Positions 1 to 18,147 of a stretch of 18,147 bases of DNA are shown one piece after another; the stretch's first letter is position 1; each line of letters opens with the position of its first letter. The DNA lies in IMG/VR virus record IMGVR_UViG_3300045988_003125, positions 1 through 18,147 of that record. One strand, 5' to 3'. Below the pieces are notes generated by a model, which saw only the letters and a list, made by a program, of their open reading frames with translations, searched no databases and was not told the origin of the DNA. The position numbers were made by a program, and so were the translations under genes. The DNA is from a virus.

Positions 1-10
1 TTTTGTCTCG

Positions 11-55
11 TAATCTAAGCGCGTAGTTTTGTCCATAATTTAAGCGCGTAGATTT
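11..55. repeat. Two 20-bp direct repeats inside the ITR, 25-bp phase
   Basis: TAATCTAAGCGCGTAGTTTT (11-30) and TAATTTAAGCGCGTAGATTT (36-55) are 18/20 identical, with core TAAGCGCGTAG at 16-26 and 41-51. Mirrored in the right ITR at 18118-18137 and 18093-18112. Confidence 0.9.
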
Positions 56-95
56 CTCGTTGTTTTTTGTTGTTCGGCGTGTTGTGTTTGTGGTG

Positions 96-104
96 TGCTA
101 TTAT
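96..104 (+). promoter_or_regulatory. Candidate extended -10 promoter inside the left ITR
   Basis: TGCTATTAT fits the TGnTATAAT-type extended -10. There is no convincing -35. It lies about 42 nt upstream of ATG 146 and faces inward. Confidence 0.5.
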
Positions 105-145
105 GTAACTATCAGCTAAAGGATATAGGAAGGATAGTGGCTGAG

Positions 146-3036: not shown

Positions 3037-4497
3037 ATGAGAGAGCGTCGAACGGCGGCAACAGACGGCGCAACACTATTGACGGATGACGGCCCGGAAC
3101 CATTGACGGCAACCGCTGCCATCCGTCTCACCATGCTCGATCATCATACGCGCGTATGGTGCGCCCACGGATGGCAGGACATCAAACCCATAGCCGCCGA
3201 GCTGTTGACACGACTGCCGTTGCAATCGAACCCAAGCAAGGACGGTGTATGGGGCACGTTCAACATTCGTGGACACTTCTACAGTTTCCGCGTGCGCATG
3301 GGCGATATCACCGTGGATTTCATGGACGTGCGCAATGTCACGCGCGACGATGGTCTGAATGTTTCACGCGAAACATTCGGAGGTGCGGACGATTTGGAAA
3401 CCACGTGGAACATCGCGCAGGAATGCGCCGCCCTGAATCTCAAGGGCACTACGATAGCATCCATGGCGATGACCGACTATATCGACGGGGATTACGCCGG
3501 ATTCAAACGCCATTTCCCACCATTGGACAAGAATGATTATCATCGGATGCGCCCCGCCTACTATGGGGCGATAGTACACAGCAAGCCGGGCGAATACCGG
3601 GATTGCCGGAGCTGGGACGTAAATAGCCTCTATCCGAGTATCATGCGCGATGCACCCATGCCGGTAGGCTCACCCATATGGTACGACGGCGAATATCGAC
3701 ATGACAATGACTATCCACTGCATATCGATATCATTGCGTTTGATGCAAGATTGAAAACGGGGAAAACGGCGACGCTCACCAACATTCTCCCTGTATGGGG
3801 GTATGAGGGCGAACGCTTGGATAGTACGTTAGGCGTCGTAACTATGCCCGTCACGGATGTGGATTGGGGAACGCTGACCGAAAACTATGACATCCATGTG
3901 TGGGAGCATGTCGGCGGCTGGAAATTCCGCAAATCGCACGGACTTTATTACAACTATGTCGATAAATGGTTTCACATGAAACAAACCGCAACCGGAGAGC
4001 GTCGGCAAATGGCGAAACTGTTGCTGAACTCACTGGTGGGAAAATTCGGGGCCTCGCTCTACCGGCCCATGCTGCACCCGAAACCATCGGCGGATGGGGG
4101 TGTGGATTTTACCGTGGACAAGCCCGAGTCGGCCAACAGTCTGGCGTGGCTGCCGACCGCCGCCTATGTCAACGCCTACGGGCGTCAAACACTATCCCGT
4201 GCGATGAACGCAAACGCCGACCGCGTACTCTACGCCGACACCGACGGCATGATATTGGAAGAGTTGGACGCGCCCGAAGGTATGGAAACGGATGACCGGA
4301 AGCTTGGGGCGTGGAAAAACGACCATACCTATGAGAGGCTACGCATTCTTGGGAATCGCAAATATTGCGGCGTGGAAACGAATGGTGACACGGTAATGCG
4401 TTTGAGTGGCGTGCATCGTGCCGCTCCCATCCCCTATGATGAGTTTTTGCCGGGGTCACGTCATCTCAATGATGACGGCCATGTTTTTGTGCTATGA
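3037..4497 (+). CDS. Protein-primed family-B DNA polymerase (phi29 gp2-like), 486 aa
   Basis: Motifs found: pre-motif AYYGAIV; motif A DVNSLYPS (3616-3639); DYPLHI; motif B KLLLNSLVGKFG (4015-4050); Tx2GR-like PTAAYVNAYGRQ; motif C YADTDG (4231-4248); KxY-like NRKYCG preceded by KLGAWKNDHTYERL. The insertions between motifs A-B and B-C are consistent with TPR1 and TPR2. Confidence 0.95.
   Translation: MRERRTAATDGATLLTDDGPEPLTATAAIRLTMLDHHTRVWCAHGWQDIKPIAAELLTRLPLQSNPSKDGVWGTFNIRGHFYSFRVRMGDITVDFMDVRNVTRDDGLNVSRETFGGADDLETTWNIAQECAALNLKGTTIASMAMTDYIDGDYAGFKRHFPPLDKNDYHRMRPAYYGAIVHSKPGEYRDCRSWDVNSLYPSIMRDAPMPVGSPIWYDGEYRHDNDYPLHIDIIAFDARLKTGKTATLTNILPVWGYEGERLDSTLGVVTMPVTDVDWGTLTENYDIHVWEHVGGWKFRKSHGLYYNYVDKWFHMKQTATGERRQMAKLLLNSLVGKFGASLYRPMLHPKPSADGGVDFTVDKPESANSLAWLPTAAYVNAYGRQTLSRAMNANADRVLYADTDGMILEELDAPEGMETDDRKLGAWKNDHTYERLRILGNRKYCGVETNGDTVMRLSGVHRAAPIPYDEFLPGSRHLNDDGHVFVL
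3360..3375. promoter_or_regulatory. parS-like ParB binding site (15/16) inside the polymerase gene
   Basis: TGTTTCACGCGAAACA compared with consensus TGTTNCACGTGAAACA. Confidence 0.55.
3968..3983. promoter_or_regulatory. parS-like site (14/16) inside the polymerase gene
   Basis: GGTTTCACATGAAACA. Both GTTTCA/TGAAAC arms are intact; the mismatches are at position 1 and at the centre. Confidence 0.45.
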
Positions 4498-4509
4498 TAA
4501 TTGGTAGCG

Positions 4510-4630
4510 GGGTGTGCGTCCCAAGTCGATTCGATGGCCCGACCGTGAGGCAAATCGGTAAGGCGATTCGGTCGGAAGTAGACGTGCGCGCCAGCCAGCG
4601 CCCAGCGACGGCAAGGGAACCCGCACAGCC
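4510..4630 (+). other. GC-rich structured non-coding spacer (nested inverted repeats); candidate RNA element
   Basis: Closing helix 4510-4518 / 4622-4630 (8 of 9 bp). Inner helix CCGACCG 4539-4545 / CGGTCGG 4569-4575, which encloses AATCG 4553-4557 / CGATT 4564-4568. No credible ORF or ribosome-binding site on either strand. Confidence 0.4.
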
Positions 4631-4639
4631 TAGCAAACC

Positions 4640-4667
4640 GGCATGACGGCGTGATTGCCGTCATGCC
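4640..4667 (+). terminator. Stem-loop downstream of the polymerase gene
   Basis: GGCATGACGGC (4640-4650) pairs with GCCGTCATGCC (4657-4667): an 11-bp perfect stem with loop GTGATT. The following U tract is poor (CACTTACTTT). Confidence 0.5.
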
Positions 4668-4687
4668 ACTTACTTTAAGAGGTGATT

Positions 4688-5029
4688 ATGGACGATACCG
4701 AAAACGATGACAAGCCGGACATCACGCCCGACGCCGAACCGGACGCGACCGCCGACGACAATACGCCGAACCCGGAACCCGAGACGCAGGGCGACAGCGA
4801 ACCCGAAGACGCAGGCGATGACAAGACCGCCGACATGTCCGACCGTCTCAGCGCTTTGGAAGCGACCGTGGCGGAATTGTCTAAAACCATTGAGGCGATG
4901 CGCGACGCGGCAGCCGACCATGTGCTCAACGACGGCCCGGATGATGACGCGACGCCGGAATCGGCTGAAATGACCGACGATGACTACAACGGCACTTACA
5001 GTACATTCGATGATTTATTTGAAGACTAA
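4688..5029 (+). CDS. Highly acidic protein, putative scaffolding protein (113 aa)
   Basis: AAGAGGTGA lies upstream of ATG 4688. The protein is Asp/Glu/Pro-rich with a central helical segment (LSALEATVAELSKTIEAMRDAAA). It sits directly upstream of the capsid gene, as phi29 gp7 does. Confidence 0.55.
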   Translation: MDDTENDDKPDITPDAEPDATADDNTPNPEPETQGDSEPEDAGDDKTADMSDRLSALEATVAELSKTIEAMRDAAADHVLNDGPDDDATPESAEMTDDDYNGTYSTFDDLFED

Positions 5030-5051
5030 TGATTAGGAAGGAATGATTATC

Positions 5052-6779
5052 ATGGCAACCACTCCAGTGGTGACGCCGAAGCAGCAGCTTCGCCCGCTCA
5101 CCGAATTCAACAACGCGCAGATTCTCAATATGATTCGCAACGAGGCATCACCCGAATATCAGCGGCGCATGCCCCCGGCCACCCAAATGAACATGGATAG
5201 GCAGATGGCCACCCTCATGTCATCCACTCAGCTGAAGAACGAGTTTTACTCGGCGTTGGTGAACCGTATCGGCGGCACCTACGTGAACACGTGGCGTTGG
5301 AACAACCCGCTGAGCGTGTTCCAGCGTGCATCTCAGGCGTATGGCGACACGTGGCAGGAAATCGCCGTGGGCATGCCGCTCGCACAGGTCTATGACCCTG
5401 ATGCGGAATACTTGGGCGCGGACAACTTCCGTAAGTGGAAAATCGACGTGGATAGCCTCTATCATCGGCTGGACTTTGCTCACTTCTATCCCGCCACCAC
5501 GGAAGACAAGACGCTCCAGCGTGCCTTCACGTCCGAAAACGGTTTGGCGTCTCTCACTTCCCAGATACTCACCTCCTGCTACAATGCCGCTGAGGTTGAC
5601 TTGTTCGAGGCCATGTGCCACCAGTTCGTTGAGTATGCAAAGCTTGGCGGATATTGGCGCGTACACATGGACAATGATCTGAACAACATGGGCAGTTCGG
5701 AAACCGCCGCCCGCGACATGCTGCGCCAGATTCGCGCATGGGCCGACACCCTGAAGTTTGTCAGCACCCGATACAATGCGCGTCACATGCCGACGTTTGC
5801 CCGCCCGGATGAACTCGTGTTGTTCTGTTCGCCCGAAGTCAAGTCCGCGCTTGATGTTCAGGGTTTGGCGACCGTATTTCAGCGTACGGACGCGGAACCG
5901 ACCATTGACCGGATTATCGTCATCCCGCAGGACAGGTTTGGCATGGATGGCGTGCAAGCCATTCTCTCCACTGACAAGCTCCTTATTGACATCCCCGTTA
6001 TCAGTGAGATGACCCAGCAGACGAATCCGGTGAACATCAATTCGGTCAACCATTATCTACATATCCAGCACATCATCTCGGTGAGTGGTTTCGCCCCCGC
6101 CATCATGTTCTGGACAGGTAAGGGGTCCACCGCCAACGTGGTGACGCCTACCGGCACGACGGCCAAGACGCCGACCTTCCAACTCAAGCTTGCCATGTAC
6201 GGCGGCGGCACGGAAACCCCGGATAGCGTGTCTCGTGGTAGCGCGGTGCAGATTACCGCCGATACGACCATTGCCAACGATGGTACGGCCACGTTCCGGT
6301 CGAATGCTGTCGAGTATCGCATTGGTGATACCGTCAAACCGAAGAGCGATTATACGTATATTTCGCCTACCGGCGTGCTGGTGGTCGGTCTTGATGAGCC
6401 GAACACCGCTATTCCGGTTACGGCTACCGCCCTGTATACCAATCCGGCGACGCCGGAGGTGCCGGGCACCGTGTCCGCAGCTTTGGACGTGCCGGTGGTC
6501 GGTGATGGTGTTATCGGATTCAATCCGTCCATCATCGCGTCGATTGCCGTCAATGCCTCGGGTGTGACCGTGGGTCATACGGCACAGGCGACCGCTACGG
6601 CGACCATGATTGACGGCCGAACCGCTGATGTGACCGCGCAAGCCGCATGGACATCCGGCACCCCGGCCAACGCCACCGTATCCGAGTCGGGTGTTATCAC
6701 GGGCGTCAAGGCGGGCACGTCCGACATCACCGCCACGCTGTTCGGCGTGTCCGGTAAGAAGCAGGTGACAGTATCCTAG
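5052..6779 (+). CDS. Major capsid protein with C-terminal Ig-like (Big_2-type) domains
   Basis: AGGAAGGA (5035-5042) lies 9 nt upstream of ATG 5052; the ATG at 5043 abuts the Shine-Dalgarno sequence. This is the largest head-module ORF and follows the scaffold-like gene. The C-terminal region (about 6541-6776) has a Big_2-like signature (SGVITGVKAGTSDITATLFGVSGKKQVTVS), and phi29 gp8 carries such a domain. A second Ig-like stretch lies upstream (about 6190-6430). Confidence 0.85.
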   Translation: MATTPVVTPKQQLRPLTEFNNAQILNMIRNEASPEYQRRMPPATQMNMDRQMATLMSSTQLKNEFYSALVNRIGGTYVNTWRWNNPLSVFQRASQAYGDTWQEIAVGMPLAQVYDPDAEYLGADNFRKWKIDVDSLYHRLDFAHFYPATTEDKTLQRAFTSENGLASLTSQILTSCYNAAEVDLFEAMCHQFVEYAKLGGYWRVHMDNDLNNMGSSETAARDMLRQIRAWADTLKFVSTRYNARHMPTFARPDELVLFCSPEVKSALDVQGLATVFQRTDAEPTIDRIIVIPQDRFGMDGVQAILSTDKLLIDIPVISEMTQQTNPVNINSVNHYLHIQHIISVSGFAPAIMFWTGKGSTANVVTPTGTTAKTPTFQLKLAMYGGGTETPDSVSRGSAVQITADTTIANDGTATFRSNAVEYRIGDTVKPKSDYTYISPTGVLVVGLDEPNTAIPVTATALYTNPATPEVPGTVSAALDVPVVGDGVIGFNPSIIASIAVNASGVTVGHTAQATATATMIDGRTADVTAQAAWTSGTPANATVSESGVITGVKAGTSDITATLFGVSGKKQVTVS

Positions 6780-6788
6780 TGATACCAT

Positions 6789-6816
6789 GAGAGGGTAGCC
6801 GGTTGGCTACCCTCTC
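6789..6816 (+). terminator. Stem-loop 1 after the capsid gene
   Basis: GAGAGGGTAGCC (6789-6800) pairs with GGCTACCCTCTC (6805-6816): a 12-bp perfect stem with loop GGTT. No T tract follows. Confidence 0.55.
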
Positions 6817-6831
6817 TCACGGCGAATGCAG

Positions 6832-6876
6832 GACAAGGCCCGGAGCGCAAGCCACGTGAGCGCTCCGGGCCTTGTC
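6832..6876 (+). terminator. Stem-loop 2 after the capsid gene (17-bp stem)
   Basis: GACAAGGCCCGGAGCGC (6832-6848) pairs with GCGCTCCGGGCCTTGTC (6860-6876), with an 11-nt loop. No T tract follows. Confidence 0.55.
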
Positions 6877-6904
6877 ATACCGGAGGTTGGATGATGATTG
6901 ATGA

Positions 6905-7018
6905 CGCGAACCCCTAGTGGACAATACCGGCCTGATCACTGGAGTGGCCGCCGGTTCCACCAAGCTGACGGCCGCGCTGTTCGGTGTCAGCGGTCAGGAC
7001 ACTGTGACAGTCGCCTAA
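6905..7018 (+). pseudogene. Relic of a Big_2 domain C-terminus (paralog of the capsid 3' end)
   Basis: This frame reads ...VDNTGLITGVAAGSTKLTAALFGVSGQDTVTVA*, against the capsid end ...ESGVITGVKAGTSDITATLFGVSGKKQVTVS*. Similarity is also visible at the nucleotide level (GCTGTTCGG.GT...CGGT......GTGACAGT). There is no in-frame start and the frame differs from the capsid frame. Confidence 0.6.
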
Positions 7019-7031
7019 TCTGCGATATAAT
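7004..7031 (+). promoter_or_regulatory. Candidate sigma-70/sigma-A type promoter
   Basis: -35 GTGACA (7004-9, 5/6), a 16-nt spacer, then -10 TATAAT (7026-31, 6/6). The predicted start is near 7038. Confidence 0.45.
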
Positions 7032-7035
7032 AAAA

Positions 7036-7069
7036 GGGAGTGTTTCACGTGAAACACTCCCTTCTTTAT
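7036..7069 (+). terminator. Intrinsic terminator-like hairpin built around the parS palindrome
   Basis: GGGAGTGTTTCACGTGAAACACTCCC (7036-7061) is a perfect 26-nt palindrome followed by TTCTTTAT and preceded by an A-rich run. Confidence 0.65.
7041..7056. promoter_or_regulatory. Perfect canonical parS site (ParB/Spo0J binding palindrome)
   Basis: TGTTTCACGTGAAACA is a 16/16 match to the consensus chromosomal parS. Confidence 0.8.
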
Positions 7070-7081
7070 GAAAGGGATAGT

Positions 7082-9331
7082 ATGCTGAGAGATATCAACC
7101 CTAACGTCGAGGCGACGTTTAACTGGGCTCAATGGACGCCCAACACGTCGCTGAAACTCTGCAACGTGCCGTGGGATAGTAGTTACCGTGACCTAGCCCG
7201 GTTCGAATCACCGCAGAAACAACAGGAATGGTTTGACCGACGGCCCGGCATTGACAGGGTGCATGGAGTCATGCACATGTTCGGCCAACCCGTGCGCGTC
7301 GAACTGCCATTTAACGAGGCGTCCAACTACAACTATGTCGTGGTGTATAACGATTACCCCGACTTGGAGACGCCACGGTATTGGTATTATTTCATCAACC
7401 ACGTGGATTACATCAATGCGTACACTACTCAGCTCACCGTACAGTTGGACGTTTGGCAGTCGTTCCAGCATGTACTTAGGTTTGGTTCATGCTATGTGGT
7501 GCGGGGCCATATCGGCATTGCCAACGAAAACCAGATGACCGATTATGGTCGCAGTTATCTCGCACTACCCGAAGGGCTGGACACCGGTAGCGAAATGGTG
7601 ACGGTAAACCAACAGTACAAGTCTCTTATCGGCATGGACGGGAAAAATCTGAATTACGGCGTAATAGTCGTGAGCACGGTAGATTTGTCAGCGGACGCGG
7701 GCAATCAGGAAAAACCGTCTCTCACTACTGCGGGCGGCTCTCTGTTTGAGAACATGGCTAACGGTGCTGAAATACTGTACTTTAAGGACATCCAGTCTAT
7801 CCAAGTGTTTATGGGAGTGGGCTCTACTTTTTCATGGATAACACAGGGTATTGTAAACATGTACATGATACCCTCTTTAGATGATGACTTTCTTAAGCAA
7901 TCCGGCTATGTCGTAGATAAGCTGTTTGGGAAAACACTCCCTTCGGAATTACATAATCGTATCTACCGTTTCCCCCAGTCGGCCACAAATGCGCCCAGCA
8001 GATATGAAGACATTATTACCATTAATGACTTTCGTGATAATTTTAATATCCCTAAACGTTATAAAAACCTTAAAAAACTCAAATGCTACCCCTATTCTAC
8101 TGTTGAATGCACTTGCTTGAATGGCACTAATATCACCTATAAGCCCGAAAATATCCAAAGCGATAATCTGGTTATTAGAGAGGTGCATAATTACGCGCCC
8201 AATGGCGCGCGCTTGAACTTTTACCCGGTTGGGTACAATAAGGCGGGTGCAAGCGAGATTGCTCCTCTTGATAACAACAATGGGTTGCCCATTGATAGCG
8301 GGGAAATGTTGGACGCCGCGTTTGGCATCAGCAATTTCCCTCAATTTGTGATAGTCAACAATGGTGCCCAGTTGGCAATGGCAAACAGTGCCTACACTCG
8401 TTCCTACAGTCAACAGTCCGCTGACTGGGCGTACCAAAAAGCGCAGATGGGCGTCAGCCAGTCTCTTGCGGCTACGGCCATGCAAAACCAGTACAATACC
8501 CAAGCCAACAAACTCGCTATCGGCAACCGCAACGCCAATAACGCGATACAAGCAACCTCGCTTAACACCAGTCTGGACAACACGACGTATATCAACAATC
8601 AGCGAGCTGACCTCGCACAGCTGAATAACGTGGTTAACGGCGTGGTCGGGGTGGCGGGTAACGCCGCTTCGGGCAATGTCGGGGGCGCGGTATCGGCATT
8701 AGGCGGTGCGGTCATGAATGGTGTCAACACTGAAGCAAACCGCAGTATCAACAATACCGCCGCCCAACTTTCCACGGCGAACTCGCTGAGTACCAACGCG
8801 GCCACAACAAGTCAGGCCAACACATACGGCTCTCAGACTACAGCGCTTTCCAACCAGTTGGCCCAAAATATGGCGGATATGAACGCGGATTACGCGCAAC
8901 GTTCCGCGTTCGGAGACTATCAAAACACCATTGCGGGTATCAATGCACAGGTACAGCAGATGCAATTAACACCCCCGACCACATCCGGCGCTATCGGCGG
9001 AGACGGTTTTAACCTCGCGAACGGTATTGTCGGGGTGTTGGTTCGATTTAAGACGTGCGCACCCTCAGCTCTGCGGAGCGTCGGAGAGTACATGTTGCGG
9101 TACGGGTATTTTATCCAGCGTTTCATCACGCCGCCGCAATCGCTGGAATGTATGACAAAATTCACCTACTGGCAGATGCAGGAGTGTTACGTGCGAGGTG
9201 ATTTGCCCGAGCAGTATCGGCAGACCATTAAAGGCGTGTTCGAGTCTGGGACTACTATATGGACCAGCCCGGATGATATCGGCGTGACCGATTGGGCGGA
9301 TAACGACCCATTGCCGGGCATCTCATTCTAG
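7082..9331 (+). CDS. Tail knob / distal tail tube protein (phi29 gp9-like), 749 aa
   Basis: The start is moved to ATG 7082 (AAAGGGA upstream), because the ORF-track start at 7040 lies inside the hairpin. The N-terminal 150 aa follow the recalled gp9 pattern (L..VP....Y......F......Q..WF; LP.......NY....N.DY......W.YF......N...T......D..Q.W; then VVRGH against phi29 IVREH). The position before the portal gene matches phi29. Confidence 0.8.
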   Translation: MLRDINPNVEATFNWAQWTPNTSLKLCNVPWDSSYRDLARFESPQKQQEWFDRRPGIDRVHGVMHMFGQPVRVELPFNEASNYNYVVVYNDYPDLETPRYWYYFINHVDYINAYTTQLTVQLDVWQSFQHVLRFGSCYVVRGHIGIANENQMTDYGRSYLALPEGLDTGSEMVTVNQQYKSLIGMDGKNLNYGVIVVSTVDLSADAGNQEKPSLTTAGGSLFENMANGAEILYFKDIQSIQVFMGVGSTFSWITQGIVNMYMIPSLDDDFLKQSGYVVDKLFGKTLPSELHNRIYRFPQSATNAPSRYEDIITINDFRDNFNIPKRYKNLKKLKCYPYSTVECTCLNGTNITYKPENIQSDNLVIREVHNYAPNGARLNFYPVGYNKAGASEIAPLDNNNGLPIDSGEMLDAAFGISNFPQFVIVNNGAQLAMANSAYTRSYSQQSADWAYQKAQMGVSQSLAATAMQNQYNTQANKLAIGNRNANNAIQATSLNTSLDNTTYINNQRADLAQLNNVVNGVVGVAGNAASGNVGGAVSALGGAVMNGVNTEANRSINNTAAQLSTANSLSTNAATTSQANTYGSQTTALSNQLAQNMADMNADYAQRSAFGDYQNTIAGINAQVQQMQLTPPTTSGAIGGDGFNLANGIVGVLVRFKTCAPSALRSVGEYMLRYGYFIQRFITPPQSLECMTKFTYWQMQECYVRGDLPEQYRQTIKGVFESGTTIWTSPDDIGVTDWADNDPLPGISF

Positions 9332-9346
9332 TGCTATACTAGAGGC

Positions 9347-10303
9347 ATGTCTAGGTCGAGGAAAAATCAGAATCGTAGGGGCGGCGCGTTACATCCGCGC
9401 GGCAATTACGCCAAGGCGCGCGCCGCCGACCTTGACGCAATGTACTATCACCTGTTGACTGAACTGGCTTTGAACCGGTTCAGTTGGCGGGGGCTGCCGC
9501 CGACCGTGGATGAGCGATGGCTGGAAATGTGTCTGTGCGAATACGGTTGCGCGTTGTTTTTCGAGGACAAACGTATAGGCCGGTTCCTCGTGACACAGGC
9601 CGGATATCAAGGCCGATTGAACGTCTACAATAATCCGACGTGCTTCGAGCCGGTGGGCGTCAACTACCATTACAAGCAACTCAAGGCGGGCCGTGAATGC
9701 ATCCCTATTTGGGATAATCGCATGCGCATGTCATTCAAGGACATCTTATGGCAGTATGCGAGACGCCTTGCCGACATTGATAAAGCGTATGACGTGAATC
9801 TGGAAAGCCTGAAACTCCCCACCATCATCACCGCCGACCCGCGTACCAAGCTCACCGTGCAGAACATGCTACAACAGCGGCAGGATGGTCAGGACTATAT
9901 TATCGGCTACGATTCGCTGGACCCCGGTAGCATGTTCCAGCCGTGGCCGAACACAACACCTTACCTGTTGGATAAGTTCGTACAGCAGAAAGCGCAGGTA
10001 ACCAACGAGGTGCTGGGGTATTTGGGCATCCAGTCCAGCGGCACCGAAAAAAAGGAACGGCTCATTTCCGATGAGGTGGCGCAGGCCAATGAAAAGGTAG
10101 ACGTGTTTCGTTTGAGTTTTCTCAAGGCGCGGCAGGCGGCGGCGACCGAAATCAACCGACTGTGGCCGCAGCTGAACGTGTGGGTGGAGTATGCGGACGC
10201 GCAAAGCTCCGGAGTGCCCAACGCGCTGGATTCCAGCGCCAGCGGTACAACTGATATCGACATGCCCGCGTCATACGACGCGGGTATCGGAGGTGTATTG
10301 TAA
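9347..10303 (+). CDS. Portal / upper collar connector protein (phi29 gp10-like), 318 aa
   Basis: The basic N-terminus MSRSRKNQNRR resembles phi29 MARKRSNTYRS. NRFSWRGLPPTVDERWLE resembles FEWENLPPTINPSFLE. GTEKKERLISDEVAQ resembles LEKKERMVTDEVS. The size also matches (phi29 gp10 is 309 aa). Confidence 0.93.
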   Translation: MSRSRKNQNRRGGALHPRGNYAKARAADLDAMYYHLLTELALNRFSWRGLPPTVDERWLEMCLCEYGCALFFEDKRIGRFLVTQAGYQGRLNVYNNPTCFEPVGVNYHYKQLKAGRECIPIWDNRMRMSFKDILWQYARRLADIDKAYDVNLESLKLPTIITADPRTKLTVQNMLQQRQDGQDYIIGYDSLDPGSMFQPWPNTTPYLLDKFVQQKAQVTNEVLGYLGIQSSGTEKKERLISDEVAQANEKVDVFRLSFLKARQAAATEINRLWPQLNVWVEYADAQSSGVPNALDSSASGTTDIDMPASYDAGIGGVL

Positions 10304-11097
10304 TGACACAGGATTTCAGCGCCTATGCGATGGCAACGCCCGGCGAATACACGGAAACATTGGGCAATCTCATTGCGTTCGGATACGACACGGACGCCGA
10401 ACTACATCTCAGCGCCGACTATTACCCGATTTACGACGAATCTCACCGCGCCGAATTGAACGAGAAAATCATTCGCCATTACGCGCTTAGGGAGATTGGT
10501 CAGGAAACCGCCCAGCAGTTCATTTTTTACTTGGGGATGACGATGGCGGAAATCATGCCATATTTTAATGAGCGCTACAGGACGCTAGCGTTGAAATATG
10601 ACCCATTGAACACTATGGAAATGGTCAGTGAAAGCCTGTCCCATACTGTAGCCCAGTCCAGCGGCAAAACCAGTGCCTCTCAGGATAGTGCGACCCGAAG
10701 CTCCTCGGACGGCACCAGCTCAAGTAGCACCAAGTCCCAGTCTTACGACTCGGAAGTGCCCGCAACCGGCGTGCAAGGTGATTTTGCTCGATACGCGACT
10801 CATGCCAATCAGGCGCAAGCGGATACGGACGGCAGTAGCCATAGCACGCAAGATACCTCTTCTCAGTCCCATAGTACATCCAGCACGGAATGGCAACACG
10901 ACGCTACAGATGGGAGCACCAAATCCCACACGTCGGGCCGCTCCCAGTCCGCCATGAGCCTGATACAGGAGTACCGACAGGCGATTATCAATGTGGACAT
11001 GGAAATTGTGCGGAGCCTCGAACCGTGTTTCATGCAGGTGTGGGGCTCGTATGATACTATTTTCAGTAACTGCCATAACTATGGAGAATGGGAGTAA
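10303..11097 (+). CDS. Lower collar protein (phi29 gp11-like), 264 aa
   Basis: TAATG overlap with the portal stop, and GGAGG upstream. The block YPIYDESHRAELNEKIIRHYALREIGQET..F...L...MAEIMPYFNERY matches the recalled lower-collar signature. The central S/T/Q/H-rich region is low complexity. Confidence 0.78.
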   Translation: MTQDFSAYAMATPGEYTETLGNLIAFGYDTDAELHLSADYYPIYDESHRAELNEKIIRHYALREIGQETAQQFIFYLGMTMAEIMPYFNERYRTLALKYDPLNTMEMVSESLSHTVAQSSGKTSASQDSATRSSSDGTSSSSTKSQSYDSEVPATGVQGDFARYATHANQAQADTDGSSHSTQDTSSQSHSTSSTEWQHDATDGSTKSHTSGRSQSAMSLIQEYRQAIINVDMEIVRSLEPCFMQVWGSYDTIFSNCHNYGEWE

Positions 11098-11099
11098 TC

Positions 11100-11741
11100 A
11101 TGGTTGCCATTAACGCGCTGATTCCACGGCAACGCTTGTTTGACGGGGTGCCCACGTCGGTTCCTTTCACGTATCGGGACGGATTGACCGCGTTGCAGTT
11201 GATCGAATGCCTACGACATAATCTCGATACCCTCCAATGCGATTTGAGCAAGCTGGAAGAGACCACCACCGACCTCGCGGCATCCGTGGACAAGGCGCTT
11301 GCGGATACCGTGGCGCAAATCAACAAGGCTATGTCCGACCTGCGCGCGGAAATGCTGGCTCTGATTCATGAAATGGAACAGCAGGGCGTGGCAACCTCCC
11401 CGGTGTACGGCACCACGCAGCCGCTCGGGGACGTGCTTGGCGGCATGTATGACAATGCGCGCAATCACGGATTGTTCTGGGGCGACTATGACAACATGCG
11501 GTTGACCGCGCAGGAATACGATGGGCTTACGCTTGGCGCACGCGAGTACGACTTACGCGCCACTGCCGTGGATAATTGCGTTCCCGGCGATTTTCCCGGA
11601 CGTTCGCAATTCCCCTACGGCAAGAGCATGCCCGAGAATCCGCCCGCCGACATGTCGTTTATCACGCAGACGGAAGCCGATGCGCGCTACGTCGAACGCA
11701 ATCCGACCGTCGCCAATTTTGAAACCAAGGAGACATTATGA
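11100..11741 (+). CDS. Putative tail / appendage structural protein (213 aa)
   Basis: GGGAG (11089-93) lies 6 nt upstream of ATG 11100. There is a coiled-coil-like central region. The C-terminal ITQTEADARYVER resembles the fibre motif ITQTAADQRYLQL of ORF 12302. The stop overlaps the next start (ATGA). Confidence 0.55.
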   Translation: MVAINALIPRQRLFDGVPTSVPFTYRDGLTALQLIECLRHNLDTLQCDLSKLEETTTDLAASVDKALADTVAQINKAMSDLRAEMLALIHEMEQQGVATSPVYGTTQPLGDVLGGMYDNARNHGLFWGDYDNMRLTAQEYDGLTLGAREYDLRATAVDNCVPGDFPGRSQFPYGKSMPENPPADMSFITQTEADARYVERNPTVANFETKETL

Positions 11742-11842
11742 CCGCAACTGGCCATACCGCCAATTACGATTTATCGCAGTTCGCCTCGGAAGACCGGCCT
11801 ACATGGTCGGGCGACTATAATGGGGACATGGCGAAAATCGAC
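11734..11842. repeat. 109-bp direct repeat, copy 1 (ribosome-binding-site-proximal bases plus the 5' end of paralog 1)
   Basis: 107/109 identical to 12298-12406; the differences are C/T at two positions. Confidence 0.95.
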
Positions 11843-12292
11843 GCGGCCATATACAAGGCGGCTGACAAACAAGGCACCGCAGTATTCCCATATCGACATT
11901 GGGCTGACGGGGATTGCAATAAGGCGTTGGAAGCAGGGTTTTATGAATTGCGTGCAGACATCGCCCACGGACCGGCGTCTTCTAAAGACATGAGAGGCGC
12001 GTTGATTGTAGCCCACAACGCCGGGAGCACAATCATCTCTCAGGTCGGAATCATAGGGGACTTTCACAACGTAGGCGGCGTGTATTTCCGGTCTAGCGTT
12101 GACTCGGGGGGCTTATGGTCAAACTGGGATAAACTTGCACCGCTGTCCACCGTGGGATCATTGACACAACGTGTCGCCGCGCTTGAATCCAAACTGGCGA
12201 CAATATCCCCACCGACAACCGGCCTTACAGCCAAACAATATGATGAATCATACGCCAACAATTCCAATATCATTATAGCAGGTCAACAGTAA
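11738..12292 (+). CDS. Appendage / receptor-binding protein paralog 1 (184 aa, knob-like C-terminal domain)
   Basis: AAGGAGA upstream. It shares an N-terminal adaptor (MTATGHTANYDLSQF.SEDRPTW.GDYNGDMAKID) with the next two ORFs. The C-terminal part has a G.Y...(N)..G.L.V.....Q.....R....W..W pattern typical of fibre knob domains. Confidence 0.7.
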   Translation: MTATGHTANYDLSQFASEDRPTWSGDYNGDMAKIDAAIYKAADKQGTAVFPYRHWADGDCNKALEAGFYELRADIAHGPASSKDMRGALIVAHNAGSTIISQVGIIGDFHNVGGVYFRSSVDSGGLWSNWDKLAPLSTVGSLTQRVAALESKLATISPPTTGLTAKQYDESYANNSNIIIAGQQ

Positions 12293-12297
12293 GGAGG

Positions 12298-12406
12298 CAT
12301 TATGACCGCAACTGGCCATACCGCCAATTACGATTTATCGCAGTTCGTCTCGGAAGACCGGCCTACATGGTTGGGCGACTATAATGGGGACATGGCGAAA
12401 ATCGAC
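12298..12406. repeat. 109-bp direct repeat, copy 2 (5' end of paralog 2)
   Basis: 107/109 identical to 11734-11842, at an offset of 564 bp. Confidence 0.95.
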
Positions 12407-12664
12407 ACGCAGATGAAGAAGAACGCCGATGCCATCCAAGACGTTGCCGGAAACACGGGTATTACACAGACAGCAGCCGACCAACGCTATTTGCAATTGG
12501 GAGGACTCTCCAACACCAACACCGCACAATCGCTTAAAACCGAGATTGACGCAAAAGCACCGAAAACCGCAAGCCAGCCGGGCACATTGGGGTTGACGGT
12601 CAAACAATTAGACAGCATGTATGTGGACGCGAACGGCATCGTCCGCGTCGGTTCCATTAAATAA
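12302..12664 (+). CDS. Appendage / receptor-binding protein paralog 2 (120 aa)
   Basis: AAGGAGG upstream. The first 35 codons are almost identical in DNA sequence to those of ORF 11738. It carries the fibre-repeat-like ITQTAADQRYLQLGG. Confidence 0.7.
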   Translation: MTATGHTANYDLSQFVSEDRPTWLGDYNGDMAKIDTQMKKNADAIQDVAGNTGITQTAADQRYLQLGGLSNTNTAQSLKTEIDAKAPKTASQPGTLGLTVKQLDSMYVDANGIVRVGSIK

Positions 12665-12682
12665 CAGTAAAGGAGTAGAGCA

Positions 12683-13606
12683 ATGTCAACCACACAGCAT
12701 ACCGGGCATTATAATCTGCCGACATTTGGCGACAACCCGAACGACCGCCCGTCATGGCGCGGTGACTTCACCGACGCCATGACGAAAATCGACAATCAAA
12801 TGTACACCAACGCAACCAACACCACCACGGCGACGGCGGCGGCGAACAACGCGAACACGGCGGCACAGAAGGCAAAGGAATCCGCCGACAACGCGGCAAA
12901 GCTTGCACAGGCCAACAAGACCGACATCGCCAAACAGGAATCGTACTTCAGCGCGCTCGGCGTCACGTCGGTACCCACGGCGCAAAACCTGATGTCCACC
13001 ATCAACGGTAAGGCGGAAAACACGGCGTTGACGGCATTGAAGGGCACGGTGTCCACGCTGTCTGATACCGTGGTCGGCAAGGCGGATGCGGCGAACGTGT
13101 ACACCAAAGCGCAGTCCGATACGACGTTCACCGAGCAGGGCGGATATGCGGGGACCGCAAAAACGCTTGACGGCCGGATTAGCTCCAACGCCTCCAGCAT
13201 ATCGACAGTAAACTCGTCTTTAGAGTCGCTGAAGAAAAATGGAGTCGACCCTATCGATGTATATCATTCTATCGATAGTGTCTACGGAACAACGGTTGAC
13301 TACCACGCCTACTACTCTCCCATCTCAAAGCTTGTCTTACTGCGTGTTACCATAACCGGCTCGGCGACAAATTGGAGCAAAGGCCTAAATTCGGCAGAGC
13401 AGCCCGTGCCACCACAATACAGGCCAGCCGGAGGGCTTAGGGAACTGCTTGCTGTTTTCGTCGGGGTGGGGAATACCTTGCCGGCACATATTCTTTTCGG
13501 CATCGACTCCAAAGGATACCCGTACGTAGACCAAGAGGGCCCGAACCCCATAACGCAGGCAAATCTGGGTATGTCGGCAATGTTGTCATATTTTGCCAAT
13601 CTCTGA
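12683..13606 (+). CDS. Appendage / tail fibre protein paralog 3 (307 aa)
   Basis: AAAGGAG upstream. The N-terminus MSTTQHTGHYNLPTFGDNPNDRPSWRGDFTDAMTKID is a diverged copy of the same adaptor. A long A/T/N-rich helical shaft is followed by a globular C-terminal domain of about 110 aa. Confidence 0.75.
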   Translation: MSTTQHTGHYNLPTFGDNPNDRPSWRGDFTDAMTKIDNQMYTNATNTTTATAAANNANTAAQKAKESADNAAKLAQANKTDIAKQESYFSALGVTSVPTAQNLMSTINGKAENTALTALKGTVSTLSDTVVGKADAANVYTKAQSDTTFTEQGGYAGTAKTLDGRISSNASSISTVNSSLESLKKNGVDPIDVYHSIDSVYGTTVDYHAYYSPISKLVLLRVTITGSATNWSKGLNSAEQPVPPQYRPAGGLRELLAVFVGVGNTLPAHILFGIDSKGYPYVDQEGPNPITQANLGMSAMLSYFANL

Positions 13607-13624
13607 CAATACTCACTGACCCCC

Positions 13625-13662
13625 ATACCCCACGGCTTACCGTCGTGGGGTATAGTATTATT
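13625..13662 (+). terminator. Intrinsic terminator after the fibre gene
   Basis: ATACCCCACG (13625-34) pairs with CGTGGGGTAT (13644-53) and is followed by AGTATTATTT. Confidence 0.65.
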
Positions 13663-13686
13663 TATGGATAATATCTGGAATCCTCA

Positions 13687-13702
13687 TGTTCCATGTGAAA
13701 CA
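13687..13702. promoter_or_regulatory. parS-like ParB binding site (15/16), intergenic
   Basis: TGTTCCATGTGAAACA compared with the B. subtilis-type parS TGTTCCACGTGAAACA. Confidence 0.65.
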
Positions 13703-13731
13703 TACCCCGTCCGGTACGCCGGACGGGGTAT
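13702..13731 (+). other. 13-bp perfect stem-loop abutting the parS-like site and preceding the lysin start
   Basis: ATACCCCGTCCGG (13702-14) pairs with CCGGACGGGGTAT (13719-31), loop TACG. No T tract follows. ATG 13741 lies 10 nt downstream. Confidence 0.6.
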
Positions 13732-13740
13732 ACTAATAGC

Positions 13741-14955
13741 ATGGTAGACGTACAGGCATGGTTGGAGCGAACCCAGAACCAATATTGGGATATGGACGGG
13801 GCTTACGGTGCCCAATGCTGGGACTTATGGGCAAAGTACTGCATGGACAATTACAATCTGTCGTTAGGTGATTGCATCACCCCGACAGGCTACGCGGACG
13901 GCAATTACACCATGTTCCCCTCCACATCCGCCGTGGGGCGCGTTTTTGAAAAAAAAGACGCAAATTATACGCCCGGCATGGGCGATGTCGTGTTTTGGAG
14001 GTTCGGCAGTCAAAACTACCCCGGCAGTCACGTAGCCATCGTGTGGGGCGGTATCCAAGGCGACGGCATCGACGTGTTGACCCAAAACCCGACGCCCGCC
14101 GTACACCGAACCTTACCGCTTATGAGGGGTTCGCAGCTACTCGGCTATCTGCATCCGGCGGCATTGCCGAAACCGCCGGAATCCGGCGATAATCCGACAG
14201 GCGGCAATAATCCGGGCGCGAACGTGGTCGGCGATATCTCCGCGTGGATTCAATTGCAGGGCGACAATCTCGTATATCATAGCGGCTCAGGCACGACATC
14301 ATCGCAGGCCATTTTCTACAAGGCAAGCGCCCAGACTTGGGTGTATCGCGGCGGCACAGGTCAGCCGGACGCCGACCAAGGTCAGGGCACGCCAAGCGTG
14401 GGCAACGGGAAAAGCTCATACGCGCTCTATGTCATCGGCACCGTCGAATCATCATTACGCTGGGATGCCGTCGAATCAAATAATCAGGGTATCGGCATCG
14501 CACAATGGAGTTTCGGACGCCGTTTGCAGGTCCTGAATGCAATGAGGGCGGTGGACGCTGTAGGATATGAGGCGTTTGCCGCCGCCGCGCCGAGTATCGC
14601 CGCGCTCATGGAATCAGGCGGCACCTTCGATAGAGCGATGACCGGCAGCGAGGTTGCGGCATTCCGGACGTGGGCGCGACGCACGGAATCACGGCAAGGC
14701 CAGCGTAATCAGTTCGCACAGGATTACAAGAGCTACCCGCAGACGTATGATGATGCGAAAATGCAGATACTGTGGACTTGCGCTTATCACCAAAGCCCGG
14801 CAGGCGCGCTGAACGTGCCGCATTCCTCATCACTCACCCAACTGTATAATAATATCCTCAATACATCCCCGTTCGGACCATACGGGACACGCTACAACAC
14901 CGCCTATTCGCTCCTGAATGTATGGGACGGCACCAGCGCGCCGCCGAACTTCTGA
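13741..14955 (+). CDS. Tail-associated peptidoglycan hydrolase: N-terminal CHAP domain plus C-terminal lysozyme/transglycosylase-like domain (404 aa)
   Basis: CHAP signature: GAQCWDLW (Cys) ... GSHVAIV (His). A Pro/Gly/Asn linker follows (PKPPESGDNPTGGNNPG). The C-terminal part has VESSLRW...GIGIAQWS, which resembles the E-S...G-x-x-Q motif of lytic transglycosylases. The position corresponds to phi29 gp13. Confidence 0.8.
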   Translation: MVDVQAWLERTQNQYWDMDGAYGAQCWDLWAKYCMDNYNLSLGDCITPTGYADGNYTMFPSTSAVGRVFEKKDANYTPGMGDVVFWRFGSQNYPGSHVAIVWGGIQGDGIDVLTQNPTPAVHRTLPLMRGSQLLGYLHPAALPKPPESGDNPTGGNNPGANVVGDISAWIQLQGDNLVYHSGSGTTSSQAIFYKASAQTWVYRGGTGQPDADQGQGTPSVGNGKSSYALYVIGTVESSLRWDAVESNNQGIGIAQWSFGRRLQVLNAMRAVDAVGYEAFAAAAPSIAALMESGGTFDRAMTGSEVAAFRTWARRTESRQGQRNQFAQDYKSYPQTYDDAKMQILWTCAYHQSPAGALNVPHSSSLTQLYNNILNTSPFGPYGTRYNTAYSLLNVWDGTSAPPNF

Positions 14956-16498: not shown

Positions 16499-17206
16499 AT
16501 GAACGGCACTACATGGATAGGGTCCCCCAATCACTACAACGGGCGCAACGGCTACGCCATAAGCCACATCACCCTACACATCATGGTCGGCACCCTCGCC
16601 GGCACCGACAGCGTTTTTCAACGCGCCGGAGGCGCTTCAGCTCACTACGGCATCGGAGGCAACGGAGAGATACACCAGTATGTGAGCGAGAGCAACGGCA
16701 GTTGGAGCGACGCAAACTATGCGAGCAACAACAGCACCGTAAGCATCGAACACCAAGGCGGCATGACCGGCGTGCCCTGCACGCGCGCGTGCATGGACGC
16801 TTCAGCCCGCCTATGCGCCGATATCGCACGCCGTCAAGGCTGGAGGCGGCTGTGGCATGACGGACTCAACGGCAACGTGTGGCTACACCGCGAGATACCC
16901 GGCACCGACCACTACGGATGCCCCGACAAGGCCGTTAATGGCCTTGACGTCAACTATGTAATCAGCAAAGCAAACCAACTATTACAAAACACTGATGAGG
17001 AGGATATGATGCAGTGTATTATCCAGCCCAATGGAGAAAACCGTTTGGTTTATTTTGACGGCCAGCGTCTCCATACGCTGACCCACCCAGACCAAGTCAA
17101 GGCCCTACAAATGGTTGCCAACCAGTGCGGGCGCACCTTGCCATGCTTCGCTCTGGGAAGCAAGACCGCGCCATGGGCCACCCGACTTGAAGAAGCCTTG
17201 AAGTAA
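16499..17206 (+). CDS. Endolysin: N-acetylmuramoyl-L-alanine amidase (Amidase_2/PGRP type) plus a C-terminal domain of about 65 aa
   Basis: ITLHIM, SAHYGI..GEIHQYV, SIEHQGG and LHREIPGTDHYGCPD match the Zn-amidase_2 pattern (H...H...C). An acidic linker (TDEED) precedes a separate C-terminal domain. Confidence 0.88.
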   Translation: MNGTTWIGSPNHYNGRNGYAISHITLHIMVGTLAGTDSVFQRAGGASAHYGIGGNGEIHQYVSESNGSWSDANYASNNSTVSIEHQGGMTGVPCTRACMDASARLCADIARRQGWRRLWHDGLNGNVWLHREIPGTDHYGCPDKAVNGLDVNYVISKANQLLQNTDEEDMMQCIIQPNGENRLVYFDGQRLHTLTHPDQVKALQMVANQCGRTLPCFALGSKTAPWATRLEEALK

Positions 17207-17221
17207 ACGAAAGAAGGAATT

Positions 17222-17668
17222 ATGACAAACCAGAACACTAATACCGCCGACGTGACCAGCGTCGGCAACACCGCCACCGTGACCAGCGTCGGCAACACCG
17301 CCACCGTGACCAGCGTCGGCAACACCGCCGACGTGACCAGCGTCGGCGGTGTTATCGCCAACAACACGGTAAGCGACCCAACGACGGACACTACGCCGAA
17401 CGTCACAAAACTATCCAACACCGACATGGACAAAGTGCTCAACGCTTGGAGAGCGGACGTAGACAAGGCCAAGCACGCAGACGGCTACACGCCAGTCTTC
17501 AGCGATACCGTGCGCACCATCATCTACATCATCGCTTTGACCGCATCCGTGGCCGGCTTGGGCCTCATGACCTTCGGACATGCCGACATCGGCGGATTCA
17601 TCAGCACTGCTGCCGGCATCATCGCCGGCGGTTTCGGAGTAGCATACAACCCACTACGCCAAAACTGA
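17222..17668 (+). CDS. Membrane protein with an N-terminal 9-aa tandem repeat and two C-terminal TM helices (holin- or antiholin-like candidate)
   Basis: GAAGGA upstream. The repeat TA(D/T)VTSVGN occurs four times. Hydrophobic segments are IIYIIALTASVAGLGLMTF and GGFISTAAGIIAGGFGVAY. It is the last gene of the lysis cluster. Confidence 0.7.
   Translation: MTNQNTNTADVTSVGNTATVTSVGNTATVTSVGNTADVTSVGGVIANNTVSDPTTDTTPNVTKLSNTDMDKVLNAWRADVDKAKHADGYTPVFSDTVRTIIYIIALTASVAGLGLMTFGHADIGGFISTAAGIIAGGFGVAYNPLRQN
17243..17350. repeat. Tandem repeat, 4 x 27 bp, in frame
   Basis: Units 1 and 4 read ACCGCCGACGTGACCAGCGTCGGC(AAC/GGT). Units 2 and 3 read ACCGCCACCGTGACCAGCGTCGGCAAC. Units 1 and 4 contain the internal inverted repeat GCCGACG-N7-CGTCGGC. 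Confidence 0.95.
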
Positions 17669-18028: not shown

Positions 18029-18147
18029 TTAGCTGATAGTTACATAATAGCACACCACAAACACAACACGCCGAACAACAAAAAACAACGAGAAATCTAC
18101 GCGCTTAAATTATGGACAAAACTACGCGCTTAGATTACGAGACAAAA
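18029..18147. repeat. Right inverted terminal repeat (ITR), 119 bp
   Basis: Exact reverse complement of 1-119. Confidence 0.97.
18044..18052 (-). promoter_or_regulatory. Candidate extended -10 promoter inside the right ITR (mirror copy)
   Basis: Same TGCTATTAT on the - strand because it lies within the ITR. It faces the - strand gene 17767-18009. Confidence 0.5.

Follow-up and report, generated by a model that had tools for sequence, protein, structure and literature searches.

Why would a phage that has no partition genes of its own carry, several times over, the DNA site with which bacteria segregate their chromosomes? The question is raised by the genome deposited as IMG/VR virus record IMGVR_UViG_3300045988_003125, which was analysed over its whole stretch from position 1 to position 18,147 (hereafter, the window). 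It contains four 16-mers that resemble parS, the site bound by the chromosomal partition protein ParB. Comparison of related sequences indicates that these 16-mers are parS of the chromosomal type and that they are kept by selection in one uncultivated lineage of phi29-like Bifidobacterium phages. The Bacillus phage phi29 and its close relatives are the only studied case of a virulent phage with host parS, and there the function is tied to sporulation. The presence of host-type parS on phages of the phi29 family is already known; what appears to be new is the setting, a host that does not sporulate.

The four parS sites and the phage that carries them

The window was searched with the sequence TGTTTCACGTGAAACA, allowing up to three mismatches, and exactly four matches were found, starting at 3360, 3968, 7041 and 13687. 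In 200 dinucleotide-preserving shuffles of the same DNA, 0.08 sites were expected at this threshold and none of the shuffles reached four, which bears out the claim of a sequence-only reading of this genome that the four sites are real and beyond chance. Two of them, neither assigned to a strand, are located inside the polymerase gene, where they occupy different reading frames: site 1 (3360..3375, TGTTTCACGCGAAACA, one mismatch) spans codons N108-V-S-R-E-T113 and site 2 (3968..3983, GGTTTCACATGAAACA, two mismatches) lies in the stretch W311-F-H-M-K-Q. The other two, likewise without strand, are intergenic. Site 3 (7041..7056, TGTTTCACGTGAAACA), whose form in the window is called 3a, matches 16/16, and site 4 (13687..13702, TGTTCCATGTGAAACA), which precedes the gene of a CHAP/lysozyme tail lysin, has one mismatch to the consensus TGTTNCACGTGAAACA and two to its T-version. 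Measured against this consensus and its 14-bp core GTTTCACGTGAAAC, the four sites thus score 16/16, 15/16, 15/16 and 14/16, and the same reading was right in assigning one full match and three near-matches to the host chromosomal type.

The genome around them is that of a phi29-like phage. Perfect inverted terminal repeats of 119 bp, on the left at 1..119 (+ strand) and on the right at 18029..18147 (− strand), indicate that the window is a complete protein-primed linear genome of 18.1 kb. These repeats far exceed the 6 bp given in the phi29 annotation. The phi29 gene set was confirmed: a phi29-type single-stranded DNA-binding protein, the protein-primed type-B DNA polymerase that holds sites 1 and 2 (3037..4497, + strand; DNA_pol_B_2, PF03175, E = 7e-36), the capsid protein Phi29_MCP, the gp9 tail knob, the connector, the lower collar, the CHAP/lysozyme tail lysin, the gp16 ATPase, a holin and an Amidase_2 endolysin, all of them encoded on the + strand. 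No ORF (open reading frame) of the window matched ParA, ParB or a helix-turn-helix (HTH) domain in Pfam or PHROGs, lax thresholds included, so that the description of the genome as phi29-like and free of par genes stands. A self-encoded ParABS cassette, with its own ParA and ParB beside parS, is not what the window contains.

The endolysin (16499..17206, + strand) provides the chief evidence on the host. Over about 98% of its length it is 73%, 71% and 62% identical to endolysins of Bifidobacterium bombi, B. aemilianum and B. sp. SO1, the B. bombi copy being located in a siphovirus-type prophage, and over 71% of the query it is 79% identical to the endolysin of the B. dentium phage BD811P2. Between the tail lysins of the window and of phage BP1 the identity is 56%. 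The nearest isolated phages by capsid protein all infect Bifidobacterium, namely BadAztec and BadAargau on B. asteroides (41-42% identity), BP1 on B. pseudocatenulatum (36%) and BD811P1-3 on B. dentium (36%). These protein identities point with high confidence to a Bifidobacterium host. Bifidobacteria are non-sporulating actinobacteria. ParABS is present in all actinobacteria examined, bifidobacteria included (PMC4255298); ParABS homologues have been described in B. longum subsp. animalis YL2, where parS was detected with the same consensus (PMC10197239), and this published consensus is also the same in Corynebacterium glutamicum, Mycobacterium smegmatis and Streptomyces coelicolor (PMC7022226).

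Conservation and turnover of the sites within one lineage

IMG/VR holds at least 136 relatives of the window, of which 90 gut-metagenome genomes (L001-L080 and L176-L185) with 77-94% nucleotide identity to it were analysed. The relatives carry parS sites at the same places, mostly nearer to the consensus than those of the window: the usual form of site 1 is TGTTTCACGTGAAACA, that of site 2 is GGTT(T/C)CACGTGAAACA, and site 3 is perfect. Among the 54 near-complete genomes, a version with at most one mismatch was found in 47 for site 1, 40 for site 2, 45 for site 3 and 17 for site 4, and at least two such sites are retained in 48. When the 277 site instances of the lineage are taken together, changes cluster at positions 1, 5 and 16, which correspond to the two outermost bases and the N in TGTTNCACGTGAAACA, and the 14-bp actinobacterial core GTTTCACGTGAAAC is retained. 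In site 2 the most frequent variant falls on position 5, the N of the consensus.

Within the polymerase gene, it is the DNA of the sites and not the protein on which selection acts. In site 1 the peptide N-V-S-R-E-T is written as AAT GTT TCA CGT GAA ACA, with codons that are in the minority in this genome (GTT 18%, TCA 14%, CGT 20%, ACA 17%); given the peptide, the joint probability of this codon set is 2.4e-4. Of 62 unique polymerase genes, 77% share the identical 14-bp core at site 1, which places this core at rank 8 of 1445 windows, whereas the fourfold and sixfold degenerate codons that flank it show a synonymous entropy of 1.0-1.9 bits. A plain entropy ranking of 16-nt windows along the polymerase gene puts the sites only in the top 8-9%, and the signal is clear once codon degeneracy is allowed for and conservation of the exact core is scored. 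The outgroup polymerases of BD811P2, BP1 and BadAztec1 have other peptides at both places, and the site 2 peptide, WFHVKQ, is specific to the lineage, the outgroups having WSELKQ, WGDLKQ and WYGRKS. This difference indicates that the protein sequence of the lineage was bent to fit parS. Some 20 bp 3′ of site 1, at 3391-3409, the gene contains a further highly conserved stretch with CACGTG, GGAAACCACGTGGAACA, whose right half is like the CGTGGAACA half-site of some parS variants and whose left half has no match.

The sites are also restricted to one lineage. A sister lineage of 80 IMG/VR genomes, related to BD811P2, comes largely from the same gut data set and is similar in size and GC content. 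Sites with at most two mismatches number 209 in 1.25 Mb of the window lineage and 0 in 1.33 Mb of the sister lineage, a contrast which shows that parS as such is under selection. At the same threshold no site was found in the Bifidobacterium phages BP1, BD811P2, BadAztec1 and BadAargau2, and no parS-like sites were found in Actinomyces phage Av-1, Arthrobacter phage Anjali, Curtobacterium phage Reje, Streptococcus phage Cp-1 or Bacillus phage GA-1. As a positive control, the scan recovered four perfect sites in phi29 and two in B103. Because the intervening relatives are devoid of sites, parS was acquired independently in this lineage and not inherited from a phi29-like ancestor. A search of IMG/VR for relatives of the BadAztec phages returned only the two isolates themselves.

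Loss of the sites has also left a trace. In a sub-clade (L060, L062, L068, L071 and L078; L063 can be counted with it) every site is decayed. Most of the changes are synonymous transitions, among them GAA to GAG and ACA to ACG, and the peptides stay intact. Such a pattern would be expected if selection on a cis-acting DNA signal were relaxed, and the sub-clade forms a natural loss-of-function set. In L062 and L063, site 1 has the palindromic form CGTCTCACGTGAGACG, from which an altered specificity of ParB might have been proposed. This candidate was rejected: the palindromic partners in CGTCTCACGTGAGACG are all third-codon positions, so that symmetric transitions are expected from synonymous decay, and the sites other than site 1 in these two genomes are asymmetric.

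Site 3 shows that the position of parS can change while the sequence is kept. The tail gene that follows it (window-type allele, 7082..9331, + strand) exists as two alleles, one with at least 96% identity to that of the window and an alternative with 54-58%. Site 3a is invariant in 48 relatives, all of which have the window-type allele. In 25 genomes with the alternative allele, a perfect parS, site 3b, lies inside the tail gene itself, where it encodes the peptide RFVSRETQ; at the homologous spot the window-type allele reads RFESPQK and has no parS. The genomes with the alternative allele lack the hairpin of site 3a, and 3a and 3b never occur together. V-S-R-E-T is encoded by both site 1 and site 3b. 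The DNA upstream of site 3 has features of its own. The stretch 6893-7015 contains ATGATGATTGATGACGCGAACCCCTAG, a shortened copy of the 5′ end of the alternative tail allele (MIDDVNPY... in L046 and L053), and what follows ATGATGATTGATGACGCGAACCCCTAG is deleted in several relatives; the whole looks like a recombination scar left by a swap of tail allele and parS position. At 6838-6875, 3′ of the capsid gene, there is a strong hairpin, GGCCCGGAGCGC-AAGCCACGTGA-GCGCTCCGGGCC, with CACGTG in its loop, which in relatives without site 3a stands directly 5′ of the tail gene.

Site 4 has undergone turnover as well. It is located 39-54 bp upstream of the lysin start codon and always adjoins the same hairpin, although the upstream gene contexts are of at least four unrelated kinds. 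In several relatives the core of the palindrome has been lost by a precise deletion of 10 bp, CATG[TTTCACGTGA]AACAT becoming CATGAACAT (the genomes compared were L012, L041, L046, L055 and L080 versus L023, L026, L069 and L073). Deletions of this type are typical of palindrome instability, and they indicate that site 4 was lost repeatedly. It may also have been gained by exchange: MT836241, which is of the sister type by its capsid gene, shares the module at 12940-13897 with 80% identity and has a perfect site 4, consistent with modular transfer.

The conclusion from these comparisons is that parS as such is under selection on the DNA rather than on the protein. The rare codons, the conservation at synonymous positions, the positional turnover and the contrast of 209 sites with none all point in this direction. 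The expectation that conservation in relatives would exceed what codon constraint explains has held, since the sites keep the same places and rare codons next to synonymous positions that are saturated.

Host ParB as the probable partner and the rival explanations

Chromosomal ParB is the only protein known to recognise this 16-mer, and no substitute encoded by the phage was found. Recruitment of host ParB is therefore the best explanation of the sites, and it is probable, from their sequence, that the ParB of the host binds them. What binding would achieve can be outlined from the behaviour of ParB. Since the phage has neither ParA nor ParB, dimers of host ParB would nucleate on the phage sites, be converted into CTP-bound sliding clamps and spread over the 18-kb genome, and the proteins linked covalently to both ends would serve as roadblocks that hold the clamps on linear DNA. 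A genome coated in this way would behave like the origin region of the chromosome and could be positioned and distributed to daughter cells by the ParA of the host and by its polar and SMC partners. The phage genome would thereby be kept in dividing cells whenever lytic development proceeds slowly or is put off, as it might be in starved gut bacteria that hold the phage in a carrier or pseudolysogenic state. Selection that is independent of position and sensitive to copy number fits such a centromere-like role. The whole chain, from binding of host ParB to a role in positioning or partition, builds on analogy and is put forward tentatively, as something a little short of an even chance.

The analogy is with phi29. 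According to PMC2731898, which summarises Meijer et al. 2005, phi29 carries five parS sites and the segregation of its genome into the prespore depends on Spo0J. This agrees with the precedent invoked by the sequence-only reading; the present scan finds four perfect sites in phi29. Like phi29 and B103, the phage of the window is a protein-primed phi29-like podovirus with several host-type parS and no par genes of its own. In both phi29 and the window phage the sites lie partly in genes and partly beside a terminator (the phi29 site at 17243 adjoins TD1), and both would share the logic of riding on host ParB. The differences are as clear as the likeness. Bifidobacterium, the host of the window phage, makes no spores, and the spore entrapment that had been listed among the possible roles does not apply to it. 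The window also lacks the other half of the phi29 device, the suppression of lytic growth through Spo0A: it contains no Spo0A box (TGTCGAA), against 2.7 expected. The sites are at non-homologous positions and in different genes, which speaks against common descent. In the window lineage the core has the T-version usual in actinobacteria; each of the four phi29 sites reads TGTTCCACGTGAAACA instead. By analogy with phi29 (PMC2731898), the sites of the window lineage may represent the same kind of hitch-hiking moved to a host without spores.

Other systems resemble the window phage in one respect or another. Chromosomal parS of actinobacteria have the same GTTTCACGTGAAAC core within TGTTNCACGTGAAACA and occur in multiple copies within a few kb, with 10 in C. 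glutamicum, 3 in M. smegmatis and 21 in S. coelicolor (PMC7022226). These are clustered at oriC, whereas the sites described here are on an 18-kb phage genome, two in the polymerase gene and one in a terminator stem or a tail gene. Plasmid prophages such as P1, N15 and extrachromosomal mycobacteriophages with parABS also have a centromere on the phage genome for episomal segregation, but they are temperate and encode their own ParA and ParB, which act on a parS of non-chromosomal type; the window phage has no par or lysogeny genes, and its sites are of the host chromosomal type. A parallel in dependence is SGI1, a mobile element that reportedly relies on the ParABS of an IncC plasmid and thus on the ParAB of another replicon, although element, ParABS family and host are all different (PMC10954446). 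A literature search did not find host-type parS described on Bifidobacterium phages or on phages of non-sporulating hosts, and neither parS nor Spo0J comes up in a review from 2024 on the diversity of phi29-like phages.

Several observations weigh against recruitment of ParB for partition. In the window itself, sites 1, 2 and 4 each have a transition in the central CACGTG, giving the cores CACGCG, CACATG and CATGTG among the three, and only site 3 is perfect, so that the three mutated sites may, to judge from their sequence, bind weakly. The function is dispensable, since the sites have been lost in one sub-clade and are absent from close Bifidobacterium phi29-like phages. Part of the conservation of site 3a could be transcriptional, owing to the terminator stem and the promoter-like element described below. 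Nor is there an independent sign of a carrier or episomal state: a search of 185,579 species-representative genomes with the endolysin and then the connector found neither the phage nor its endolysin, and no repressor, integrase or other persistence gene was found in the window.

Recruitment of ParB could also serve ends other than partition, and both ParB titration and ParB-mediated silencing are live rivals. In the former, replicating genomes, present in hundreds with three to four parS each, would act as a sponge that draws ParB off the host origin; regulation of ParA and loading of SMC would be lost, segregation and division would be derailed, and the cell would become a non-dividing factory. 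This accounts for the same sequence evidence, needs no carrier state and suits the positional turnover, because titration depends on the number of sites and not on their position; loss of ParB in actinobacteria does cause strong segregation and division defects (PMC7022226). Yet at high copy number one site in each genome would be enough for titration and two to four are retained, and the phi29 precedent is one of segregation. Titration is a serious but improbable reading. Silencing is somewhat less probable again. Here ParB spreading from the sites would repress late promoters and delay lysis in a non-growing host, a strategy with analogues in the Spo0A repression of phi29 and in the CtrA sites of alphaproteobacterial phages. 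In some species ParB represses promoters that adjoin parS (PMC7022226, PMC5521831). In the window, the strong promoter-like element at 7004-7031 has site 3a just 3′ of it, and the lysin gene has site 4 on its 5′ side, about 40-55 bp from its start. Sites 1, 2 and 3b, however, are deep inside genes, and 3b replaces 3a without any promoter context, which shows that what is conserved is not nearness to a promoter. The transcriptional effects of chromosomal ParB spreading are, besides, usually mild. The contexts of sites 3a and 4, with promoter and hairpin, do allow a transcriptional side-effect of ParB binding.

Explanations that dispense with ParB are unlikely. The palindrome might be the operator of a phage regulator, or of a host regulator other than ParB, that only resembles parS, and such a regulator could be sought among several small early ORFs without recognisable function; moreover, two of the sites adjoin promoter- or terminator-like elements. 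It would then be an extraordinary coincidence that the palindrome matches parS 16/16 and tolerates change at the known degenerate positions alone. Half of the sites are intragenic, and neither an HTH nor another DNA-binding domain was detected. The sister lineage, which has no parS, contains homologues of the early orf95, orf351 and orf640; the ORFs without such a homologue are a coiled-coil scaffold-like ORF and variable ORFs of the tail or right end, and no gene was found whose presence or absence follows the parS status among the compared relatives. An operator of this kind is accordingly given very little weight. Least weight of all goes to the view that the palindromes act purely as RNA or DNA hairpins, terminators or structure signals with no protein partner. 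Site 3a does form the stem of a terminator-like hairpin, whose flanks show compensatory changes, and site 1 can form a 12-bp RNA stem. But five unrelated places would not need one and the same 16-mer simply to form hairpins, site 2 folds no better than its shuffles (z = −0.1), the other hairpins of the genome have unrelated sequences, and at site 3a itself the flanks co-vary while the parS core is invariant.

Recruitment of host ParB, whichever end it serves, has implications for how phages live with their hosts. A parS device that acts only in cis has arisen independently here, in phages whose host is an actinobacterial gut commensal that makes no spores. This implies that phages gain from hijacking chromosomal ParB in other ways than spore entrapment, and the gain could lie in partitioning or positioning their genome, in titrating ParB or in silencing. 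The sites offer a way to test directly how 'lytic' phages of the gut persist alongside their hosts, with the parS-free sister lineage and the parS-decayed sub-clade as natural controls in the same metagenomes. DNA that is linear and capped by terminal proteins is also an interesting natural substrate for ParB-CTP sliding clamps. A bolder idea, again by analogy and rather doubtful, is that this 'strictly lytic' phage persists in dividing Bifidobacterium as a ParABS-partitioned linear episome capped by terminal proteins, without lysogeny genes; if true, it could explain why 'lytic' phages persist over the long term with a keystone gut commensal and are passed on vertically together with it, for example from mother to infant.

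Terminator- and promoter-like elements and other features of the genome

Site 3a is the core of a 26-bp palindrome, with a stem of 13 bp and a folding energy of −21.6 kcal/mol (z = −6.7). The element as a whole, GGGAG-parS-CTCCC followed by a U-rich tail (7036..7069, + strand), is a terminator-like hairpin whose stem is built on site 3. In the relatives the GGGAG/CTCCC arms show compensatory changes and in some of them the T-run is longer, which indicates that site 3a also acts as an intrinsic terminator-like element. The promoter-like element, GTGACA-16-TATAAT (7004..7031, + strand), matches 11 of 12 consensus positions, a match to the consensus only, and is retained in most relatives. It ends 9 bp 5′ of site 3, upstream of the tail gene, whose ATG is at 7082.

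A comparable arrangement is found beside site 4, which adjoins a conserved hairpin, ATACCCCG...CGGGGTAT, followed by TATACT, 6 nt and the ATG of the lysin gene (13702..13740, + strand; −31 kcal/mol for the segment). This segment is probably a terminator combined with a promoter of the leaderless type. The same layout of gene starts recurs at 13625-13673, 13702-13743 and 9329-9349, where a GC-rich hairpin ending in GGGGTAT is followed by TATAGT or TATACT, about 6 nt and ATG. Several genes of the window have TATACT, 6 nt and ATG and no Shine-Dalgarno sequence, which suggests that these units are terminator-promoter units that yield leaderless mRNAs, frequent in actinobacteria.

The polymerase of the window has 486 amino acids, compared with 445-471 in other Bifidobacterium phi29-like phages and 575 in phi29. 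The Pfam family DNA_pol_B_2 (positions 169-392 of 468) aligns only to its residues 132-343, and the N-terminal exonuclease region may be divergent or reduced. Although the genome has a gene for the gp16 packaging ATPase, a search of the window against Rfam gave no family, the phi29 packaging RNA included; if this phage has such an RNA, it has diverged beyond detection. By megablast of the whole window against GenBank phages, the sole match was MT836241, at 5%.

One further genome deserves a remark. L081 (GCA_001292545.1, CYGL01000165.1) is a contig of 34.9 kb. In it the right-hand two-thirds of a phage genome from this lineage, whose tail gene is truncated, run into a block of unrelated genes encoded on the other strand. 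The contig is probably a chimeric assembly; its counterpart in the Logan assembly of run ERR975021 is a normal phage contig of 16.9 kb.

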